A stretch of DNA of 20,000 nucleotides, taken from IMG/VR virus record IMGVR_UViG_3300025470_000023, one strand, 5' to 3'. The translations under genes and the position numbers were made by a program. Below are positions 1 through 19,998 of the stretch, one piece after another (the first letter of the stretch is position 1; every line of letters starts with the position of its first letter). The notes beneath the pieces were generated by a model, which was not told where the DNA came from, made no database searches, and worked only from the letters and a program-made list of their open reading frames with translations. The DNA is from an uncultured virus (IMG/VR IMGVR_UViG_3300025470_000023). Taxonomy: Duplodnaviria > Heunggongvirae > Uroviricota > Caudoviricetes.

Positions 1-2
1 AG

Positions 3-3000
3 CGCCTCGCCAAGCTGGATATGAATAACCCAGAGCACATCGAAGCTATTTCCGATGAGCTAAACAAGACACGCGTGCAGATCGAGCCTGAGAAGCTGGC
101 TGCACTGTCAAATCATTTTGATGCTATTATAAAGCCTAGTAAAACAACAGAGCAGAAGGCTTATGGCGCGCAAGGCGAACAGAACATCATTCCAAAAAGG
201 CCACCAACTGTGGACCTCGGAACGCAAAGAAAAACTACAGAACTCTTTAGCCCAGAAGCGCAAAGAGGGATGGAGCTCCTTACCCAAAGGATACAAGATG
301 TCGCCCGAAGTTATACAGAAGAGGGGCGAAACCCGGCGCAAGAATTGCTTAGGCAAACGATACCTACACAAAAGTTGCAACAAGACATATTGGGTCATTT
401 GGACACCCTCGGGGAAACGGTACGAGCATCGGGTGATTATGGAGCAGTTGCTAGGGAGATCATTACTGAAATCGGAGCACGTTCACCACAAGGACGGGGA
501 CGGCTTGAACAACTCACCCGAAAACTTGGAGCTTCTGAGCAGCAGCGCCCACGCGAAAGAGCACCATCACTTACCTCTAGGGAAATGGGCCAAGAACCAC
601 GAGGTGTGCTTGAAATGCCACAGCAAGGAGCGAAAGCACCTAGCGAAAGGCTTATGCACGAGGTGTTACCAACAAAACAAGCAGGAGAAATAGATGCCCT
701 CAACAAGCAAATCTCAAGCACGCCTGATGGCGGCAGCGGCGCACAACCCGTCTTTCGCGAAGAAGGTGGGGATCAAGCAGTCAGTGGCCAAGGAGTGGAA
801 CCAAGCGGACAAGGGGAGCAAGCTGCTGAAGTCGAAGCCCCGAAAGAAGTAGAGGCCATCCAGCAAGAAGCGCGTTCGCTCCAACCGGGAGATATTATCG
901 CCAACGATATGGGTGATAGAGTTGAGATCGTGAAATTGGGTGGTACGCTTAAAGACGGCACACAGTTGTATGAATGGCGTGACCCTGATGACCCCAATTT
1001 TGGTCCTACGAAGATGGCTACTTCTTCTCCTGAAGGTAGTGAAGGCGTGCTCTCTATACATACACTGCTGTCCCCATACCAATATCTTACGCCTGAAGGC
1101 GAACGTAAGAGCGCTCCCGGCGCTACTATAACTAGAGCACAAGAAGCACCTAAAACGGAAGAAGAGCTCACAGCGGTAGAACCGCAAAACCCTCGCGAAG
1201 CGTGGGAAGCCATGCGTAGTGAAGGCGATCCTGACCATAAGGCCCTACCGCGCGAAGCGCAGATTGCATGGAAAAGAGCCTTTGATGACGGCGCTGCAGA
1301 CAAGGCTTTCTTCGATCAGCTAAAGACCGCGATCACTCCAGAAGCAGATAGGCAGGCTGGCGAGACAGAAGAAGCCGTTGCCCCTTCTAAAAAAGACTAC
1401 GATGGTGATGAGTTCCTCTATAGCCGCGGTGAGAAACCAAAAGAAGCAACTAGCCGGGAGATGATCCATGAGACGATCAAGAACATCACTGGTGATAAGC
1501 CTACCGCTTGGAGCGTAAAAATCCATGACACGGTAGAAGATGCACAGAATCATTTGAATGAGGCTGTTTATGAAAAGCTGGATAGGGATTACCCGGCTAT
1601 TATGCGGGCTATTGACCATTTTGAACGCACGGGAGAGCTAGACCCTAATGATCCTTACTTGCCTCGTGGTGGTGTTGTATCTCGTGAGCGGCATATAGAT
1701 ATCCTGCGCGGAATAGCCAGTGATATACGCAAGAATGCTGAAGCTAAAGGGCTTACGGGGTTAAAACTTGAGCCCGATGCTAGAGGTTTCGTGCTGGGGA
1801 ACAAAGCGCATTTCGTTGTAGAAAACATCCCTAAAGGGCGGGAACTTGGGGTGATGCTGCATGAGGTGGGTGATCACCTCGGTATGGAAAAACTGTTGGG
1901 TACAGAACAGCGCTCTAGACTCGCAGCTAAAGTTGCCGATTGGGCCAAGACGCATAAAGGTCTTGAAGGTGACGTTGCTCGCGCTGCTATTGAACGTTCT
2001 CGTGGTGATGAATCAGAACACATCGCTTACTTTGTAGAAGAAGCGGTTAACCACGGCGTTGACCCCACTGCATGGAAGCCGAACTCTGGGTTTAGTGTCT
2101 GGTTCCGTCAGCTCTTGGCTGCATTCAAAGCTGGCTTACGCAAACTCGGTATCAAGAATGTTGATCGTCTGTCTGCTCAAGATATCGTAGATATGGCCTA
2201 TGGTGCGGCGCACCTTGAGTTGCGCAGTCGTTGGCATGGTGCCCCTAAAGACTTCAGAAAATTCCAGCTCAAGTATCGCGGCACTGGGGAAGGCGGCTTA
2301 GAGCCGGGTGATAGAAACGCTGAACACTTTACCGACATGATTGGTTGGGGGCATTACATGTCCGGTCGGCGTGGTATCGCTGAAGAATATCGTGATCGCC
2401 TGTCTGCGCAAGCTAAGCGTGGTACTGGAGCATTAGACCTTAAAGACTATAAAAAAGATTTTGATGTAGGCACTGACAAAGCGACCGCTTTTAGCGATGC
2501 CTATGAGATTTTACATGAAACTCGGGGGGATTTTATTAAGGCTAGGCGGCGCATAGGTTTGCACGCGCAAGAATTCACTGATGCCCTAAATGGAGTGTGG
2601 CCCACACCTAAAAATCTTCCAGATCTTATAAAACAGGCAGAGAAAGAACGTGACCTCGCATTACAGTTTATAGACACGTTTGAAAAGCACGGAGCTGAGT
2701 ATATTCCGGGCGAGCAACCAGAACCCACACTCTATAAACTCGGCATCAACGCCTTCGACCATGAGCTTATCGACTGGGAAAAACCCCTGTCTGAGCAAAG
2801 CCCTGACGTACAGCGCGTAGCTAATCGCGTAAAGAAGAAGCTGGAAAAAGAAGGAGTGCTTGACGACGTTGTCGATACGCTTAATTCAAATTGGGAAGAC
2901 ATCTCAGGTAGAGACTTCTATCGGTATGTGATGCGTAAAGCACGGGATACCGATGCTATTCCAGAGTTGTATGACTTGAGCGCCGTTAACGCAGAGAAGG

Positions 3001-6000
3001 CGGCATCTGAGTATTTGGACTCTCAAGGGATCAAAGGCATCAAGTACCCGACCCAAGGAGGGCAGGGTCCGGGCCACAACTACGTCATCTTTAGCGACAA
3101 GAATGTTCATATCGCGGGTAAGAATGTGCCGCGCACTGAAGCTGAAGGTATTCGCTACTCGCGTGCTCCTGAAGGGGAAGAAGAACGTCCCCCGCTAACC
3201 AAGATTGATCGCAGCTCTACCCTAAAGACGATCGCTAAGACTTTGAAGCGCGCGGCGTTGGCGGTTAGTGATCCGAGTGCTATGTCTGAGGAGTATGCCA
3301 AGTTCCGGCGGCGGGTGATCGCTGAGTCTGCAGGTCTGACCAAAGCTCTCGAGAATGAGCCTACCTACGATCCTGATACCGGCATTCGCGTGGACTATCT
3401 GCGGAACCAATACGACAGTGCCTATCAGTTATCTCTGGAAGGTCTGTTCAATGGTGTGCCTGTGCTTGAGCCTAAGACGGGTGTTGTGCGTATTCAGCCG
3501 ACGACTCGTACCAATCTCGATCGCATCATGGCAGATGCAGCTAAGCTACCGCTCAAAGTCTCCTATGACGGGCAGAAAAAGGAACCGCTCGAAGTCATGG
3601 CGGATATCTTCCGTATCAAGATGGGTGAACAGGAACTCAAAGAATACGAAGAAGCCAAGGTTAAGCTAAGAGCAATCGAACAGTTGCCAGAAGCTACGCG
3701 CAATCAGACCGACACCAAGGCGGAAATGGATAGGCTTAAAGAGCTTATCACTAATCAAGAAAGAGGCATTGGTCGTGAGCGTAATGTCACCCGCGAAGAC
3801 ATTCGCTGGGCTAATGACGAGATTCAACACGTACCGGGAGTGCAGGATATTCTGGATCGTTGGGGTGAGACTAACCAAGAGCTGCTACGTTTTGCGCGTG
3901 ACACCAACTGGATCACTCCTGAGAAGTATGAAGAATGGTCGGAGCGGCCCTCATACATCCCCATGTATAAGCCGATGGAAGATATCCTAGCAGAGCGCGA
4001 CGAGACACCTGCATTCCCCGGTGGTGGTCCTAAGACTGTCGGTAAGCTGTTCGGTAAGACAGGTGCGGCTAGTGCATTCCCTGTGAATGTTTTTGAGAGC
4101 TTGTCTCAGCACTATACGTCGATGATCACCAACTCCATGATGAACAACGTCAAGTATAGAGCCTTCCAGCAGCTTGAACGGGTAGGGTTGGCAGAGCGCG
4201 TTGCACCCACATACAAGGGTAAGGATGCTGTAAAGGCGCGCGCCGCTGGTAAAGACTTCCTCTATAAAGTGAAGGACGAAGAGGCATTCCGTTCGCTGAC
4301 GATGGCGAATATGTACAGCAACCCGTTCCTTGATCTAGTGGCGATCCCGGCTAATGTGGTTCGCCGTACGGCGCTGTTCCTGAACCCTGCTTACTACTAC
4401 AGGACGATGATCCATGATCCTCTCGCCGCTACGCTGACTACGACAGCTAAAGGCGCGATCGGCCCTGTGACTCCTGCAGATGCCCTGTATCAGATAGGCA
4501 AGCGGGCTGCGGGTTTTGATAAGTCGGCTAAGGATCTGCAGTACTACGGAATCAGCGGGCTCGCTAACATGGACGCCAACATGCACCGTTTCGCGCGGGC
4601 TCTTGGCGACTCACCGAAATATAACAAGTGGCTCCAGTACATTGATAAGGTCCACTCTTCTTTCGATGACGCTACGCGTACCATCGTCTATGAGGCGGCT
4701 AAGAAGGAAGCGGCTAAGGATGGCATCACTGATCCGCAGGTGATTAACGATATCGCCGCTGTTAAGGCTCGGGACTTTGCTGACTTTGCGGCCAAGGGCT
4801 CTAGTCAGCTCGTGCGTATAGCAGGTAAGCAGACTCCGTTCCTTCACGCGCATTTTGTGGGTCTGGATAAAATGCTTCGCTCTGCTACAGGGCACGGTAA
4901 GGACTCCAAGGAAGGTAAGGCTCAGCGTGATCGGTTTGTCGCTGGCGCTACGCTTGCGGCGAGTGCTGTAGTGGCTATTACTCTCGCTAACATACGTGAC
5001 AAGCGATACCGGGACCTGCCTATCGGTGAGTGGTCCAAGAACATCATTGCTGGATTTGATGATGAAGGGCGCGCAATCAAGATCCCTGTACCACAGGAAA
5101 TTGGCTTCTGGTTCAAGTTTGTTCCTGAGCTCATGACCCGTATGCTGATGGGCGTTAGTGATAAGCCTGAAGCGAGCAAGGCATTTCACGGTATGGCGAT
5201 AGATACATTGCTTCCTCCGGGTCTGGCTGACCCGATCAGTATCGCGGTGCGTGGTTGGTTGCAGATGCAGACGAATACCGAGTTGCATAGTGGCCTCCCG
5301 ATTGAAAGCCCGCAGGAACAGTTGCTCCTGCCAGAAGACAGGGACAAGAGAGCGACTATCTTTAGTAAGGCTCTGCGTGATCAACTCAAGAAGTATGGGT
5401 TGTCGGAAGACTTCTCACCAGATAAGTTCGACAGCTTTATGCGCTCCTATCTCACTACAATCTGGGATAACTCTGCTCTGGCCGCGACGATGATCCATGA
5501 TGCCTATACAGGCAAACGCAGTCTGTTTGAACTGCCTTTCAACAAAGACTTCACGGAAGTGTACCCCGGCGCTAAGGCATTCTTCAGCAATCCGAGAAAC
5601 ATCTCAGCTACGCCGCGCTTCTACGATATGGCCAAGCCGCTCTATGAAACGCTCAAGTCAGTCAATGCGGCGGCACACGGAGAAATGGATGACTCCGTAG
5701 AACGGTTTGATGAGTTACGCAATGATCCTGTTGTGATGCAACGCTACCGTATGGCGAAAGTGGCGGCTAAGTATCGGTCTAAGATTTCAGCTTTGGAAAA
5801 GGCGATCGAACAGCTTGATAACAGGCAGGATCTCACTGAGGCGCAAAGGCGCAAACTTTACTGGGACCGCATCAAGGATCGCAATGAACTTGCTAGAACT
5901 GCTGTAAATGAGCTCTCCAAGGGCCTAATGCAGGACAAGAAGTTCAAGGACGATGTAGAGAAATCTTGGAAGCTCTCTGTGTCTCCTGAAGACCTCGAAC

Positions 6001-6047
6001 GCGAGATAGGTAAGTTCAAGGAAAATACAGGTGATACGGAAGAATAA
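3..6047 (+). CDS. Giant polyvalent phage protein, probably internal virion/ejection protein (zincin-like peptidase motif, ART-like region, LPD38-like C-terminus); 5'-truncated by window edge
   Basis: The frame is open from nt 3 (upstream of the ATG at 21) to TAA 6045-6047. Motifs: GVMLHEVGDH (HExxxH, ~1860-1877); WHG...GTGEG...GWGHY...DWEKPLSEQ...GIKGIKY...NYVIF (ART-like, ~2230-3115); IKIPVPQEIG...GLPIES...SPDKFDSFMRSY (LPD38-like, ~5040-5600); xYSR domain-boundary motifs (FLYSR, IRYSR). No Cys seen in 2008 aa. Confidence 0.85.
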   Translation, partial: RLAKLDMNNPEHIEAISDELNKTRVQIEPEKLAALSNHFDAIIKPSKTTEQKAYGAQGEQNIIPKRPPTVDLGTQRKTTELFSPEAQRGMELLTQRIQDVARSYTEEGRNPAQELLRQTIPTQKLQQDILGHLDTLGETVRASGDYGAVAREIITEIGARSPQGRGRLEQLTRKLGASEQQRPRERAPSLTSREMGQEPRGVLEMPQQGAKAPSERLMHEVLPTKQAGEIDALNKQISSTPDGGSGAQPVFREEGGDQAVSGQGVEPSGQGEQAAEVEAPKEVEAIQQEARSLQPGDIIANDMGDRVEIVKLGGTLKDGTQLYEWRDPDDPNFGPTKMATSSPEGSEGVLSIHTLLSPYQYLTPEGERKSAPGATITRAQEAPKTEEELTAVEPQNPREAWEAMRSEGDPDHKALPREAQIAWKRAFDDGAADKAFFDQLKTAITPEADRQAGETEEAVAPSKKDYDGDEFLYSRGEKPKEATSREMIHETIKNITGDKPTAWSVKIHDTVEDAQNHLNEAVYEKLDRDYPAIMRAIDHFERTGELDPNDPYLPRGGVVSRERHIDILRGIASDIRKNAEAKGLTGLKLEPDARGFVLGNKAHFVVENIPKGRELGVMLHEVGDHLGMEKLLGTEQRSRLAAKVADWAKTHKGLEGDVARAAIERSRGDESEHIAYFVEEAVNHGVDPTAWKPNSGFSVWFRQLLAAFKAGLRKLGIKNVDRLSAQDIVDMAYGAAHLELRSRWHGAPKDFRKFQLKYRGTGEGGLEPGDRNAEHFTDMIGWGHYMSGRRGIAEEYRDRLSAQAKRGTGALDLKDYKKDFDVGTDKATAFSDAYEILHETRGDFIKARRRIGLHAQEFTDALNGVWPTPKNLPDLIKQAEKERDLALQFIDTFEKHGAEYIPGEQPEPTLYKLGINAFDHELIDWEKPLSEQSPDVQRVANRVKKKLEKEGVLDDVVDTLNSNWEDISGRDFYRYVMRKARDTDAIPELYDLSAVNAEKAASEYLDSQGIKGIKYPTQGGQGPGHNYVIFSDKNVHIAGKNVPRTEAEGIRYSRAPEGEEERPPLTKIDRSSTLKTIAKTLKRAALAVSDPSAMSEEYAKFRRRVIAESAGLTKALENEPTYDPDTGIRVDYLRNQYDSAYQLSLEGLFNGVPVLEPKTGVVRIQPTTRTNLDRIMADAAKLPLKVSYDGQKKEPLEVMADIFRIKMGEQELKEYEEAKVKLRAIEQLPEATRNQTDTKAEMDRLKELITNQERGIGRERNVTREDIRWANDEIQHVPGVQDILDRWGETNQELLRFARDTNWITPEKYEEWSERPSYIPMYKPMEDILAERDETPAFPGGGPKTVGKLFGKTGAASAFPVNVFESLSQHYTSMITNSMMNNVKYRAFQQLERVGLAERVAPTYKGKDAVKARAAGKDFLYKVKDEEAFRSLTMANMYSNPFLDLVAIPANVVRRTALFLNPAYYYRTMIHDPLAATLTTTAKGAIGPVTPADALYQIGKRAAGFDKSAKDLQYYGISGLANMDANMHRFARALGDSPKYNKWLQYIDKVHSSFDDATRTIVYEAAKKEAAKDGITDPQVINDIAAVKARDFADFAAKGSSQLVRIAGKQTPFLHAHFVGLDKMLRSATGHGKDSKEGKAQRDRFVAGATLAASAVVAITLANIRDKRYRDLPIGEWSKNIIAGFDDEGRAIKIPVPQEIGFWFKFVPELMTRMLMGVSDKPEASKAFHGMAIDTLLPPGLADPISIAVRGWLQMQTNTELHSGLPIESPQEQLLLPEDRDKRATIFSKALRDQLKKYGLSEDFSPDKFDSFMRSYLTTIWDNSALAATMIHDAYTGKRSLFELPFNKDFTEVYPGAKAFFSNPRNISATPRFYDMAKPLYETLKSVNAAAHGEMDDSVERFDELRNDPVVMQRYRMAKVAAKYRSKISALEKAIEQLDNRQDLTEAQRRKLYWDRIKDRNELARTAVNELSKGLMQDKKFKDDVEKSWKLSVSPEDLEREIGKFKENTGDTEE
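163..693 (+). CDS. HNH endonuclease (NUMOD3-like N-terminus, HNH core, C-terminal Cys finger) nested in the +1 frame of the giant gene
   Basis: 176 aa. YEHRVIMEQLLGRSL...EHVHHKDGDGLNNSPENLELL...HAKEH is a typical phage HNH core. SFQKGH and GYKMSPEVIQKR resemble NUMOD3 motifs. C-terminal CLKC...HLAKGLCTRCY. Confidence 0.88.
   Translation: MARKANRTSFQKGHQLWTSERKEKLQNSLAQKRKEGWSSLPKGYKMSPEVIQKRGETRRKNCLGKRYLHKSCNKTYWVIWTPSGKRYEHRVIMEQLLGRSLLKSEHVHHKDGDGLNNSPENLELLSSSAHAKEHHHLPLGKWAKNHEVCLKCHSKERKHLAKGLCTRCYQQNKQEK
694..852 (+). CDS. Small basic phage protein (52 aa) nested in the +1 frame of the giant gene; absent from the ORF track
   Basis: ATG 694 directly follows the HNH stop (TAGATG), with AGGAG at 683-687. 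Translation: MPSTSKSQARLMAAAAHNPSFAKKVGIKQSVAKEWNQADKGSKLLKSKPRKK*, TAG 850-852. It resembles, from recall, a widespread small phage protein type MPSxSKxQxxxMAAxAHNPxFAKKVG. Confidence 0.8.
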   Translation: MPSTSKSQARLMAAAAHNPSFAKKVGIKQSVAKEWNQADKGSKLLKSKPRKK

Positions 6048-13825: not shown

Positions 13826-14494
13826 TTAGTCTCCTTGATGAGGGCAACTCGTTACGTTGCACCACTTTCGGCAAAGACCGTTCGGGCGAGGGTTCCACAC
13901 ATCAGTCTGATAGGCATTTTCCAGAGCGGATAACAGCCCATGCAATTCAGAGAAGATGCTCAACCCATACTCTGCCGAGAAGTCTTGCTTCCTGTGATCT
14001 TTCTTTACTACAAAGAGTAGCATGGTTTTGATCTTTTCTATCTCTGGGTATTTGAGAAACAGGGCAGCGGCCATGAGAGCAAGCTGGCGAGTGTCGGCGT
14101 ATCGGCTTTCTCCTGTCTTGTAATCCAGTACCCATGCCCGATTGCCATCGACAATAACCAAATCTGCAATACCTCGAAACCAAACTTCAGGGTCGTAGTA
14201 ATCGCACGTTTCCAACCGCCCATCGACTTTCTTCACTCCCAATTTCATTTCACAGAACTTCTCGCCCGGATAGGCAACGAGCTTATCGAGGTAATCTTGT
14301 ATAAAGCTGAACCTCTGTGGAATGGGAGTGCCGTCTCGAATGTATTCCTCTGCCGCCTTATGCAGTTGCTCGCCGTAGATAGCCTTCTCTCCTTGCGTGA
14401 AGGGAACTTCCTTGGTGACCTTCTCCGCCTGATACTTGCGAGGGCAAGTCTCAAACGTCTTCAGTGCGCTGTACGACCATGCGGGTTGTTTCAT
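13826..14494 (-). CDS. Cas4-like PD-(D/E)XK exonuclease
   Basis: WSYSALKTFETCPRKY, GEQLH, RGIADL, VLDYKTG, QLALMA, and C-terminal CRKWC...CPH (1+3 Cys pattern). Confidence 0.88.
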   Translation of the reverse strand: MKQPAWSYSALKTFETCPRKYQAEKVTKEVPFTQGEKAIYGEQLHKAAEEYIRDGTPIPQRFSFIQDYLDKLVAYPGEKFCEMKLGVKKVDGRLETCDYYDPEVWFRGIADLVIVDGNRAWVLDYKTGESRYADTRQLALMAAALFLKYPEIEKIKTMLLFVVKKDHRKQDFSAEYGLSIFSELHGLLSALENAYQTDVWNPRPNGLCRKWCNVTSCPHQGD

Positions 14495-16323
14495 GCTTCC
14501 AGTTTCTTCATCTTGAATGACAGGTCTCTACCGTATCCACCCTCGGCATCTAGGGGTAGGCCCTCGGCCCACTTGGGAGGAACGCGAAGCTCGGTGATGA
14601 TAAACCGTCTGGCCTCATCAGCCTCGTCCTCGGGCACTACGCAATAGACCGCATCGTGAATGGTAAGTGCCGCCGGGTACTTCTTGTTGATCCGTACCAT
14701 CGCTTCACCCATTACGCATCTAGCCAACGCTTGAATTGTATTCTGATAGCACTTCGGCCCGTGAATACGTTCAAGTTTCTTGCGTACTTTGTAGCGCCAC
14801 TCGGTGCGCCCGTTCTCTTCCACTTGGTGTAAATCTGGATAGCGTAAGGACAACCCAGACGGCAGTATTATACCATGCTGGCCCATCACTTCGAGGGGTA
14901 GCACCTCACCAAACTGGAAGATGTAGTGATCGCGTATGTGCTGTAGAACCTTCTCGCCTTCATACCACGATTCTTTTACCTTGGTGTACTCGGTACGGTA
15001 GCGGTTAACCAGAGTTTGTGCGAGGTCTTCTCCAATGTCTTTCCCTGACAGTACCTTGATGGCATTCCTGAGCTTCTTATGTCCGGTGCCATAGATCAGT
15101 GAGAGCTGTGATTGCTTGCCGATGAAGCGTTGATCGTCGTCCACTTCCTCGTAGGCTACGCCGAAAATCGGCGCAATGAAGTCTCGATAGAGGTCGCGTC
15201 CTTCGGCAAGTAACTGCACCTTGTCCATCTGCCCGGCAAAGTAGAGACCCACACGGAGCTCGATGTTCGACAAGTCAGCACCCACGATGACGTATCCGTC
15301 AGGCGCAACGATCGCCTTCTTCAGCGTGGACCCACGCGGTACGTTCTGTAGGTTAATTTTATCCGTAGCTGACCATCGGCCCGTCATGGCTCCATAGTAT
15401 TTCAGCGGTACGGGCAGTGCTCCACCGATCTTCGCCATTTCAATGAACCGTTCGGTGCGCGTCTCCTCAAGCGTAGACTTAACACCCACACGCGCGGCGG
15501 CGAGTGTCTGAATACGGAGGTCTTCGTGCTCCAACAGGGCCTTCATTCCTTCGTCAGTCTTGGCGAACGCATAGGCTTGCTTGCCTGTGCGGAGAGACGT
15601 TTTCATGGGAGGCTCGATCCCTATGTCTCGCAGAAGATCAGCGAACTTATCATTGGACATGAAGTAGGCTTGCGCTACTCCGGCATCTGCGAGTAGCTGT
15701 ACTTTCTTCGCCTTCACCGCGTAAAGGTGTTCTTCTAGGATAGGCAGGTCTAGCTGTAGCTTAGGCTCAGAGTGCATTCGACAGGTCATATCAATCAGCT
15801 TGATCTCTGTCTTATCGAACTTGGGAGCCATCTTCTTGAATAGCGCATAGGTCAGGTCTACGTCATTACGACAGTAGGCCATATAGGCAGTCATCTCATC
15901 AGGTGCGAAGTCCTTCCGCTTCTTACCCTTGGCATCGAGAACTTCCTTACCCTTGATCCCCACGCCGTAATAGCGGGTCATCATATCGAGACTGCCCCCT
16001 ACTTCCGTGCCATGCAAAGCGCGACCCATAGACAGGGTATCCAGAATCATCTTGGGCTTATGCCCGAAATGCCACGTAAGAATAGAGGCATCGAACATGG
16101 AGTTATGAGCGAGCATTGCTGAGTTCGCCCAATCGAATTGATCTAGGAAGTTGGCAGTCCCCTGCTTCGTCCCTGTGTAGTGCTTGGTCGGCTCATCGTT
16201 CTTCTTGACCGCTACGCCGATCACTTCAAACTGCGGGTCATCTAGGTACTGCTGAGTGGTCAGCTTTGTCAGGCTGTACTCTTGCGAATAGAACGACTCA
16301 AAGTCGATCGTTAAAATATCCAT
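14491..16323 (-). CDS. Family A DNA polymerase with 3'-5' exonuclease domain
   Basis: ExoI IDFES, ExoII AHNSMFD, ExoIII YCRNDV, TGRWS, NLQN, motif A ADLSNIELR, motif B RFIGKQSQLSLIYG and motif C IHDA. Start is ATG 16323 or 16338. Confidence 0.93.
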   Translation of the reverse strand: MDILTIDFESFYSQEYSLTKLTTQQYLDDPQFEVIGVAVKKNDEPTKHYTGTKQGTANFLDQFDWANSAMLAHNSMFDASILTWHFGHKPKMILDTLSMGRALHGTEVGGSLDMMTRYYGVGIKGKEVLDAKGKKRKDFAPDEMTAYMAYCRNDVDLTYALFKKMAPKFDKTEIKLIDMTCRMHSEPKLQLDLPILEEHLYAVKAKKVQLLADAGVAQAYFMSNDKFADLLRDIGIEPPMKTSLRTGKQAYAFAKTDEGMKALLEHEDLRIQTLAAARVGVKSTLEETRTERFIEMAKIGGALPVPLKYYGAMTGRWSATDKINLQNVPRGSTLKKAIVAPDGYVIVGADLSNIELRVGLYFAGQMDKVQLLAEGRDLYRDFIAPIFGVAYEEVDDDQRFIGKQSQLSLIYGTGHKKLRNAIKVLSGKDIGEDLAQTLVNRYRTEYTKVKESWYEGEKVLQHIRDHYIFQFGEVLPLEVMGQHGIILPSGLSLRYPDLHQVEENGRTEWRYKVRKKLERIHGPKCYQNTIQALARCVMGEAMVRINKKYPAALTIHDAVYCVVPEDEADEARRFIITELRVPPKWAEGLPLDAEGGYGRDLSFKMKKLEA

Positions 16324-16619
16324 TCTTGTCTGCTCCATTGGTCGAGCATTGTTTTTAATTCGTCCACATTCACTTCGTTAACGACGATAGCGAAGCCACC
16401 ACAGCTTTTTATCTGGGCGATCTCCCTGTCCTGTAGTGCTGTGGTTTTCCCCTTTCCGGCCTTTGCCTCGATCGCAAAGAACCGACCACTCAGACAGCCA
16501 ACGAAATCTGGAATCCCAGCTCTGCCATAGCCATTGGCGGGTGGCATGAAGAAATAGCAACCGGGAACAGACTCGAGGACCTTCTTTATCTTGGCTTTTA
16601 TTTTTCCCTCTGGCGTCAT
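16311..16619 (-). CDS. VRR-NUC domain nuclease
   Basis: MTPEGKIK...GIPDFVGC...FFAIEAKA...TALQDREIAQIKSCGG. Confidence 0.88.
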   Translation of the reverse strand: MTPEGKIKAKIKKVLESVPGCYFFMPPANGYGRAGIPDFVGCLSGRFFAIEAKAGKGKTTALQDREIAQIKSCGGFAIVVNEVNVDELKTMLDQWSRQEWIF

Positions 16620-19019: not shown

Positions 19020-19425
19020 CACCCCCTCCTATCTCGTGGTGTTTTTCTGCGAAACGGACGCCAGCTACAAATGTTAAATACTCTGGGGTTCCCATGTTAG
19101 GCAGTTCCTCCTGCGTCATCGGCTTCCTTGCTGGCGAGGGTCTGGTGTAGAGAGCGCGGCGTTTATATTCTGGGTACATCCCGGCGTCATCGAATACGTC
19201 CTTAGCTACATCAATCCACGCAGTGCTGGTTGATCCTTCAGCCATTGCTATTTGATACACAGGCTCTGCTTCTGGTTCTGGTCTGGTGTAGAGGGGTTCA
19301 AACCCATCAGTTTTATGAAACGCTACTATCTGATCTCCATTAGGCGTTGTTCTCATCCACGCCACAGGCTTATCTGCTTCTGGCTCGGCGGCGAGGTTCT
19401 TACGATTGTCTTGCGTAGTTTCCAT
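19012..19425 (-). CDS. Accessory protein with two PVxx...LYTRP modules; start lies inside the upstream HNH gene
   Basis: AEPEADKPVAW...PLYTRP / EPEAEPVYQ...ALYTRP; GAGGAG 4 nt before ATG 19425. Confidence 0.65.
   Translation of the reverse strand: METTQDNRKNLAAEPEADKPVAWMRTTPNGDQIVAFHKTDGFEPLYTRPEPEAEPVYQIAMAEGSTSTAWIDVAKDVFDDAGMYPEYKRRALYTRPSPARKPMTQEELPNMGTPEYLTFVAGVRFAEKHHEIGGGDE
19139..19293. repeat. 14-nt direct repeat (LYTRP module ends)
   Basis: GGTCTGGTGTAGAG at 19139-19152 and 19280-19293; also TCTGCTTCTGG at 19265-19275 and 19373-19383. Confidence 0.7.
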
Positions 19426-19909
19426 GATGCTCCTCTCTGGCTTTTTGCGCGGCTAACACAGCTTCCTCAACAGTCTTAAATGTTCCGATATTTATTTGCT
19501 TGTTGTGTTTCCATATAGAAACCCTGTATGTGCCATATTTCTCTCTGTAGTAGACGTTTTTGATGCCAGAAATGTTGGTCGTTTGAATTTTGCGGTTCCA
19601 ATTATTTTCTGTTGAATTTGCCGGTCTTAAGTTTTCAATTTTGTTGTCCAATCCGTTCCCGTTTATGTGGTCAAGAATGGCATCAGGCGCAGAACCATGA
19701 AACAAAAACCAAACGACATGATGTGCGCGTACTGATTTACCCGGAATTGCTTGAACGCTGTAGTATTTCTTTCGACTAGCCAACGATCCCGCTGGTTTAC
19801 CCTTCTTATTCCTTCCGCTATCCACTTTCCAAACCAAGCAACTTGGGCTTGATTCATCGTATTCATAGCGTTCAGCGGCCCGTCTCAGCAGTTCGGTTGC
19901 AGTACTCAT
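19400..19909 (-). CDS. Free-standing HNH-AP2 homing endonuclease
   Basis: RAHHVVWFLFHG...ILDHINGNGLDNKIENLR...ENNWN plus AP2-like SGIKNVYY...YRVSI...IGTFKTVEEA. GGGAGG and an ATGA overlap at ATG 19909. Visibly AT-richer than the flanks. Confidence 0.88.
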   Translation of the reverse strand: MSTATELLRRAAERYEYDESSPSCLVWKVDSGRNKKGKPAGSLASRKKYYSVQAIPGKSVRAHHVVWFLFHGSAPDAILDHINGNGLDNKIENLRPANSTENNWNRKIQTTNISGIKNVYYREKYGTYRVSIWKHNKQINIGTFKTVEEAVLAAQKAREEHHGNYARQS

Positions 19910-19998
19910 GCTTCCTCCCAAATACCAAGCGCCACATAAAGATCCTTCTTGCATTCGTATTCGGCAATGTCCTCGTGCAAACTGTCTCGGCCAAAGGC
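19906..19998 (-). CDS. 3' end of a hypothetical gene (partial)
   Basis: Open frame AFGRDSLHEDIAEYECKKDLYVALGIWEEA* ending at TGA 19908-19906, overlapping the next ATG. Confidence 0.5.
   Translation of the reverse strand, partial: AFGRDSLHEDIAEYECKKDLYVALGIWEEA

Follow-up and report, generated by a model that had tools for sequence, protein, structure and literature searches.

How can a single stretch of phage DNA carry three genes on top of one another without any of them being broken? The question arises at the 5′ end of a 20,000-nucleotide (nt) stretch of DNA (the window, to whose first letter all positions refer) from the uncultured virus IMGVR_UViG_3300025470_000023 (Caudoviricetes), which lies in a 35.5-kb virus contig. 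A giant open reading frame (ORF) on the plus strand, in frame 3, is open at the 5′ end of the window and occupies 3..6047 (whole gene -1890..6047, 2645 amino acids, aa); it is the gene of an LPD38 polyvalent virion protein. Inside it, on the same strand and both in frame 1, stand an HNH_3 homing-endonuclease gene of 176 aa (163..693) and a small gene of 52 aa plus stop (694..852), which is in the +1 frame relative to the giant one. We consider it probable that the small gene is a functional gene nested in the LPD38 giant gene and that the HNH gene was inserted in front of it without breakage.

A sequence-only reading of this locus had drawn attention to an AGGAG-N6-ATG directly behind the HNH stop codon. 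This arrangement is present: the Shine-Dalgarno (SD) motif AGGAG of the small gene is at 683..687, within the 3′ end of the HNH gene, followed by the spacer AAATAG (688..693) and the ATG at 694. The two translations of 694..852 given in that reading, a 52-aa peptide in one frame and an acidic Gly/Gln/Glu stretch in the host frame, are also the ones that we obtain. The HNH stop codon TAG (691..693) directly abuts the ATG (694..696), the stop/start adjacency of a coupled gene pair, and this adjacency makes coupling of HNH termination to the start of the small gene a candidate mechanism. No sigma-70-like promoter and no intrinsic terminator was found in window 1-1200, which argues, weakly, that the small product is made from the mRNA of the giant gene.

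The small gene and its overlap with the giant gene

Is the small gene under selection in its own frame, and which of the two readings is the older? Besides the window copy, hereafter W, five further nested copies were found, two on metagenome contigs (L005 and L006, among the matches listed for a metagenome scan of at least 599 stretches) and three on viral contigs (L053, L063 and L073, by a pattern scan). All six have the same relative frame and a GAGG or GGAGG motif 4-6 nt before an ATG or GTG, and the peptide is conserved in sequence in the five copies besides W. Four of them, L006, L053, L063 and L073, carry no HNH gene and still keep the ORF in the +1 frame of homologous giant ORFs, in agreement with the earlier proposal that the overlap is ancestral. 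In these HNH-less copies the SD-like motif falls on the codons for a Glu-Val pair (GAG GTN) in the giant protein, and the start region of L006 reads AAGGAGG-N6-GTG.

The geometry of the overlap allows the two frames to be told apart, the third position of each small codon being the first of a giant codon and the second small position being the giant wobble position. Between L053 and L073 the differences at small positions 1, 2 and 3 number 2, 0 and 14 (binomial p 1.2e-5); the corresponding counts are 1, 0 and 9 for W against L006 over codons 8-47, and 4, 1 and 12 for L006 against L053. Changes that leave the small protein intact and alter the giant one account for 15 of 16 differences between L053 and L073, for all 10 between W and L006 (codons 8-47) and for 13 of 17 between L006 and L053, and the reverse class, changes that alter the small protein alone, is empty in those three pairs. 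In terms of protein, pairs drawn from L006, L053 and L073 are 96-98% identical in the small frame versus 67-69% in the giant frame. Because almost all of these substitutions are silent in the small frame, selection acts on the small gene, and the giant frame there is no more than a stop-free linker. Purifying selection in the embedded frame, independent of the host frame, is thus seen both in L053/L073 and in W/L006, and the comparison of frames that had been suggested for this locus rules out conservation in the host frame only. As a control, none of the 16 other alternative-frame ORFs of at least 70 aa within these giant genes matched any PHROG.

The same stretch is conserved as DNA. An island at 715..849, the dual-coded part of the small gene that is common to the HNH-less relatives, is 92% identical between W and L006 versus 78-82% in the flanking giant-gene DNA, and by blastn it is the only, or nearly the only, stretch that can be aligned to L053, L063 and L073. 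In an alignment of nine giant proteins (A1), all nine keep the giant-frame reading of the small ORF, even where the flanks have diverged or cannot be aligned.

How common is the small protein elsewhere? It belongs to phrog_16759 (E 9.9e-23, 81.3 bits, residues 1-45 on profile positions 1-45 of 58) and also matches the first 46 positions of two PHROGs annotated as virion structural protein, phrog_22033 and phrog_25121; across the three families its first 45-46 residues align at E 1e-22 to 4e-15. Searches of Pfam (E <= 0.1), NCBIfam and PDB sequences with the small protein gave no match. A HMMER search of 1.84 billion cluster representatives returned 1337 proteins at E <= 0.001, 65 of them at E <= 1e-10, and tblastn placed the domain in 155 GenBank phage records. 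The resemblance to a widespread small phage protein family, which had been offered from recall, is therefore real. With more than 1300 clusters at 50% identity, the family is a widespread unnamed module that is missing from Pfam, NCBIfam and the PDB sequence set.

Among the best 150 of the 1337 matches, 45 are no longer than 100 aa, 65 have 101-300 aa and 40 exceed 300 aa; homologues that stand alone, with 52-90 aa, are common. In the same 150 the domain starts at residue 1 in 64 proteins, at an 'MP' or 'LP' start behind an extension in 16 and internally in 61, with nine left unparsed. Among the GenBank rows listed, every record above 180 kb is a jumbo phage (121Q/PBECO4-like, K64-1-like, 201phi2-1 and KTN4-like), and the jumbo-phage copies among the best tblastn rows have 59-70% identity to the window copy. 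Annotated virion structural proteins of Escherichia phage 121Q (gp51, 263 aa) and Salmonella phage PHA46 (878 aa) begin with the domain. The neighbours of free-standing members mostly belong to phrog_12985 and phrog_8198, both of unknown function, with a few tail-fibre-like proteins; no HNH gene was found next to free-standing members at E <= 1e-5.

Nesting is the exception in this family. A back-translated pattern scan of viral contigs gave at least 119 stretches, from which 80 loci were fetched, with 76 true members among the matches listed. Only three of the 76 are nested, all in this giant-gene clade, and the others are free-standing or fused; the phrog_16759, phrog_22033 and phrog_25121 copies elsewhere are genes that stand alone or N-terminal domains fused in frame. 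The homologues whose existence the nested-gene idea depended on are thus plentiful, and their nesting in giant genes is rare. Since so few sampled members are nested, the small gene probably long predates the overlap. Over the 47-codon domain, at least one giant-frame stop occurs in 68 of 75 sampled family members (median about 5), and three of the seven stop-free members are nested copies; given the peptide and the codon usage of this genome, the probability that the small ORF has no giant-frame stop is 0.004.

In the mechanism that we propose, the small gene would be the older and constrained reading, which stands alone or fused in hundreds of unrelated phages, and the giant ORF would have come to read across this pre-existing gene, where it encodes a stop-free Gly/Gln/Glu-rich linker. 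The small product would be made by internal initiation on the late mRNA of the giant gene. A long gene that reads across an older short one is the reverse of the usual overprinting story. A textbook arrangement of this kind is that of phage lambda, in which the o-spanin gene Rz1 is embedded in the i-spanin gene Rz and both products come from one late mRNA. As with Rz1, the whole of a small gene, start codon included, is contained in the +1 frame of a larger one; unlike Rz1, the small gene described here is mostly free-standing and older than the overlap, its host is about 8 kb long and there is no known functional pairing of the two products. A literature search on polyvalent proteins and nested or overlapping genes, in an incomplete library, brought up no gene nested in a polyvalent or LPD38 gene.

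Arrival of the HNH cassette

How did the HNH gene come to lie in front of the small gene? Its product matches HNH_3 (PF13392; E 2.7e-11, 43.3 bits versus a cut-off of 24.8, residues 87-131 on profile positions 2-45 of 46) and 12 PHROG families, 11 of which are annotated as HNH. By blastn, homology between W and L006 ends at 127 and resumes at 715, which delimits a cassette at 128..714: 587 nt take the place of 41 nt and thereby lengthen the giant frame by 546 nt, or 182 codons. Alignment A1 agrees, with about 190 residues that are present in W and P0004 and absent from seven of the nine giant proteins. The HNH gene was thus inserted just in front of the small gene, as had been supposed. The alignment adds one refinement. 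The 41 nt of the L006 allele that were lost comprise the native SD-like motif, the GTG start and the first seven codons, and the cassette provides AGGAG, ATG and seven different codons that fit the family consensus MPS-x-S, so that on this comparison the cassette includes the first seven codons of the small gene, unlike those of the HNH-less copies. We propose that the HNH_3 cassette would have been inserted directly upstream in W and L005, replacing the native ribosome-binding site, start codon and first seven codons, and that translation of the small gene would now begin at the abutting TAG and ATG, either through the AGGAG or by re-initiation after HNH termination.

If the HNH gene had simply interrupted the giant gene, stop codons would be expected in the giant frame. 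With the HNH amino-acid sequence fixed and codons drawn from the usage of this genome, 13.3 giant-frame stops are expected; there are none over the 176 codons (exact P of zero 7.7e-8), and the third frame has 10. Third-position T amounts to 7.4% in the HNH gene versus 26% genome-wide, and its distribution follows the risk of creating a stop: T-ending codons number 0 of 60 before codons that start with AA, AG or GA versus 13 of 115 elsewhere (Fisher p 0.003). If the rate is taken from those codons of the HNH gene that are not at risk, P is still 7e-4. Related HNH ORFs on viral contigs, 30 in number, each contain between 4 and 30 stops in the corresponding frame. The HNH gene would thus have been purged of host-frame stops, and because it has none, ribosomes in the giant frame would read through it, the giant protein gaining about 182 linker residues and staying unbroken. 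Most likely the giant protein is made with an extra Glu/Gln/Gly/Arg-rich insert in its Pro/Ala/Glu-rich linker region.

The cassette also bears signs of recent movement. W and L005 have no mismatch over 120-831 (712 nt), whereas the preceding 1727 nt contain 69, the last of them at 104, 107, 113 and 119, with an upstream divergence of 2-7% per 200-nt bin; homology between the two stops at 849. In four freshwater sequencing runs (X10-X13) one contig has L005-type flanks and an identical cassette, and the remaining contigs are identical to the window except for one base at 889 in X12. Joints that would bypass the HNH insert were not found in the contigs of these four runs. A homing element that was transferred recently and co-converted its flanks would be expected to leave such a perfect tract amid diverged sequence. 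The seg and mob homing endonuclease genes of T4-like phages spread in this way, with co-conversion of flanking markers. The likeness to them consists in the tract of perfect identity round the endonuclease gene and in a site that is altered relative to the HNH-less allele, as if the target had been destroyed; the difference is that seg and mob genes lie between genes or split them, whereas the HNH gene here lies inside a coding sequence that would be left translatable.

Might the small gene, in the genomes that bear the HNH gene, be an untranslated passenger relic that is conserved only through the recency of the insertion? The identity of W and L005 across the cassette yields no signal of post-insertion selection, and the native SD, start and seven codons have been replaced, as a relic would allow. 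Against this, the cassette gives the small gene an intact ATG, a canonical AGGAG at 6 nt and seven codons that fit the family consensus, and the purge of host-frame stops from the HNH gene implies a long nested residence, during which an unused ORF would be expected to decay. We therefore regard the relic as an improbable explanation.

The identity of W and L005, which makes post-insertion selection on the small gene unmeasurable, weighs nonetheless against our own reading of a functional nested gene, and so do several other points. The three frames are read from the DNA letters, an SD-like motif and a start being present in all six copies. The HNH gene itself has only a weak SD-like AGAAGG (154..159) with a spacer of 3 nt before its ATG, recognised by resemblance to the consensus. 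Comparisons with L063, the most divergent nested copy, give 18 differences that are silent only in the small frame, 11 that are silent only in the giant one and 20 that are non-silent in both, and a weak excess at third positions (16 of 38 and 20 of 49 differences, p 0.16-0.17). Finally, in six of the seven HNH-less protein relatives (P0003, P0005-P0010) nesting is deduced from conserved giant-frame residues.

Predicted translation of the overlapping frames

Could the small ORF be part of the giant protein rather than a gene of its own? A programmed -1 frameshift near codon 50 would join it, as an N-terminal domain, to the downstream two-thirds of the giant protein. The passage from frame 1 to frame 3 is indeed a -1 shift, and the in-frame N-terminal position of the domain in the virion structural proteins of 121Q and PHA46 offers a precedent for such a fusion. 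However, inspection by eye, with no formal scan, revealed no slippery heptamer of the form X-XXY-YYZ ahead of the stop codon in W. Nor do the nested copies have a shift site in common, since their tails are of different lengths and sequences and terminate at different stops, and the many short free-standing homologues, among them the 45 of the best 150 matches that do not exceed 100 aa, speak for a protein complete in itself. A frameshift thus seems very unlikely, and internal initiation of a separate small product is the account that we retain.

Splicing offers a different way round the HNH gene. If the segment were a self-splicing group I intron or an intein, it would be removed and the giant protein made without extra residues; HNH endonucleases are often intron-encoded, and a disjunct distribution is typical of such elements. 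Yet a search of Rfam with both strands of window 1-1500 gave no match at E <= 1, an HNH gene that is out of frame cannot be an intein, and Pfam finds no intein domain in the giant protein. The absence of an Rfam match together with the out-of-frame position of the HNH gene makes an intron or intein unlikely. Moreover, an intron has no need to avoid host stops, of which the HNH gene has none. We give splicing as little credence as frameshifting and keep to translation straight through the HNH gene.

Such read-through has a recent counterpart. The ShiLan domain of mycobacteriophage DNA methylases is such an HNH ORF, out of frame in a host gene whose own frame it does not close (Arsenault, Gosselin and Gogarten 2025, PMC11855218). 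The two cases share an HNH ORF (195 aa in ShiLan, 176 aa here) with Cys-rich, zinc-finger-like flanks in an alternative frame, no host-frame stop and a disjunct occurrence in closely related phages (PMC11855218). The ShiLan case also lacks an intron or intein signature, and here the Rfam and Pfam results above make one unlikely. They differ in that the host here is a giant polyvalent virion gene of a freshwater phage and not a methylase gene, that the insertion here lies in a linker before an older nested gene, to which it would give the ribosome-binding site and first codons, and that the stop purge is quantified here, no such test having been noticed in the parts of PMC11855218 drawn on. At our locus, the HNH gene lies in an alternative frame without host stop, and its presence is disjunct (two of nine giant proteins) and accompanied by signs of recent transfer. 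In tblastn the HNH protein had no match in GenBank phages at E <= 1e-5. The cassette is, by analogy of arrangement, a second case of an out-of-frame 'hidden HNH' insertion. The stop purge would provide quantitative support for this class of 2025 and extend it to a new host gene. Both nested genes will escape gene callers, and a search of genomes for depleted host-frame stops could bring further elements of this type to light.

It is scarcely credible that the giant ORF is an assembly or frame artefact, two genes flanking the HNH and small genes with frame 3 open by chance or error: frame 3 over 128-852 is of low complexity and without family match, as such an artefact would be, but the arrangement recurs in L005, L006, L053, L063 and L073 and in the independently assembled runs X10-X13, the chance of an open frame is that given above for each of the HNH gene and the small ORF, the seven HNH-less relatives (2094-2576 aa) are continuous across the site, and no stand-alone homologue of the N-terminal 684 aa was found, with limited sensitivity, among proteins of 376-1197 aa.

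The giant protein and a possible role for the small one

What kind of protein accommodates these genes? Pfam places LPD38 at residues 2297-2451 of the 2645 (57.1 bits versus a cut-off of 27), a lysozyme-like stretch matches phrog_873, and 5′ of the giant gene, on the same strand, lie tail-fibre, virion-structural and endolysin genes. LPD38, a very large multidomain protein and a late or virion gene context are thus all present. Phage-type polyvalent proteins are predicted to be packaged and injected (Iyer et al. 2017, PMC5512222), and the giant protein, judged by its domains and setting, fits that class as far as it is described in the parts of PMC5512222 consulted. Among GenBank phages no close DNA relative of window 1-3000 was found, and tblastn of the giant protein gave distant matches only, covering 7-26% of the query. 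In scans of viral contigs neither the downstream part of the giant protein nor alignment A1 brought up a confirmed relative; a scan with the N-terminal part gave one contig, which ends at residue 392, before the site.

Downstream of the small gene the giant gene is variable. A central module of about 2.3 kb (849..3176) has been swapped, with no homology among W, L005 (10625-11779) and L006 (10177-13212), and the ends of the gene are 78-98% identical. The left break point of this module coincides with the stop codon of the nested small gene, and a contig of run X10 departs after 848 into L005-type sequence; the alignment of giant proteins agrees with the DNA on this module. On the other side, about 60 residues ahead of the HNH site, P0008 has an in-frame insertion of about 83 residues that resembles a folded domain. 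It too lies in the Pro/Ala/Glu-rich linker, a hint that insertions are generally tolerated in this linker.

As for the small protein, an AlphaFold2 model built on 35 sequences (mean predicted local distance difference test score, pLDDT, 84) has helices at 6-17, 19-25 and 29-39, followed by a Lys-rich tail. The context of the internal copies gives a further lead: in 60 of the 61 among the best 150 matches the domain is preceded by [LVI]-x-E-[KR], the family's 'MP' being replaced by 'E-K/R'. The prohead protease of T4 prefers sites of the form Leu/Ile-x-Glu. The context [LVI]-x-E-[KR] looks like a prohead-protease site that would expose the domain as a mature N-terminus, and the prohead proteases of SPN3US, phiKZ, 201phi2-1 and T4 all cleave after Glu (PMC5694885, in the part drawn on here). 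The simplest reading is that the domain would be the mature N-terminus of head-packaged proteins, of which the nested gene would supply a free copy in late expression. Taken together, the virion N-termini of jumbo phages and the [LVI]-x-E-[KR] context point to a virion-packaged protein, and we suggest, with low confidence, that the small protein may be a basic, head-internal one, possibly DNA-binding. DNA binding is suggested by its charge and by weak helix-turn-helix rows at E > 2. Like the T4 internal proteins and the ejection proteins of giant phages, it is small, basic and encoded among virion genes, and as these are cleaved after Glu, so its larger homologues have the domain after [LVI]-x-E-[KR] (PMC5694885, same part). 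It differs from them in that the nested copy begins at its own Met, without a propeptide, and in that packaging and cleavage are here putative. The protease-like context is nevertheless a lead to the function of the small family in well-studied jumbo phages.

Several results weigh against this functional assignment. Foldseek with the small-protein model found nothing at E <= 0.001 (best E 2.8), its weak rows, mostly helix-turn-helix DNA binders, all having E > 2, and the VIA fold search gave a best Z-score of 3.3, nothing significant. The 'virion structural protein' labels in 121Q and PHA46 are the annotations of the depositors.

A broader picture, which we find possible and on balance doubtful, would join these threads. 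The conserved island would be a near-invariant fixed point in a fast-evolving injected giant protein and serve as a landing pad both for module swaps and for a homing endonuclease, whose gene would have adapted, one codon after another, to go unnoticed in the host frame. The small product would be one of a near-universal class of basic proteins packaged in the head, released from precursors at prohead-protease sites in jumbo phages and internally initiated here.

Some observations on the small family and on the rest of the window stand apart. Four other members, at L015, L065, L071 and L026, have a second open frame of 123-386 codons that spans the domain; in these unrelated phages the domain may partly overlap a neighbouring gene. 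The C-termini of three longer members (P0019, P0038 and P0039; alignment A3) share the Gly/Lys-rich motif G-I-A/E-x-K/S-G-x-T-K/R-G-R. In runs X10 and X13, short freshwater contigs match only window 784-815 (32 bases) and then run into a different homologue; other members of the small family therefore appear to share the habitat. Profile searches do not support kinship of the small protein with DUF3008 (PF11450): none of 35 aligned members matched at E <= 10 and the window protein gave no match at E <= 0.1; an ESM Atlas neighbour cluster (rank 8, score 0.93) carries PF11450 on 37% of its members, a lead to distant kinship and not to membership.

A second, unrelated HNH gene lies among small ORFs on the minus strand at 19403-19954 (phrog_99, E 1.8e-58), so that by sequence match this genome carries more than one HNH gene, the other being that at 163-693 on the plus strand. 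Also on the minus strand, at 13829-16338, a DNA polymerase (615 aa, phrog_17) and a 222-aa exonuclease (phrog_69) are encoded by separate, adjacent and slightly overlapping ORFs.

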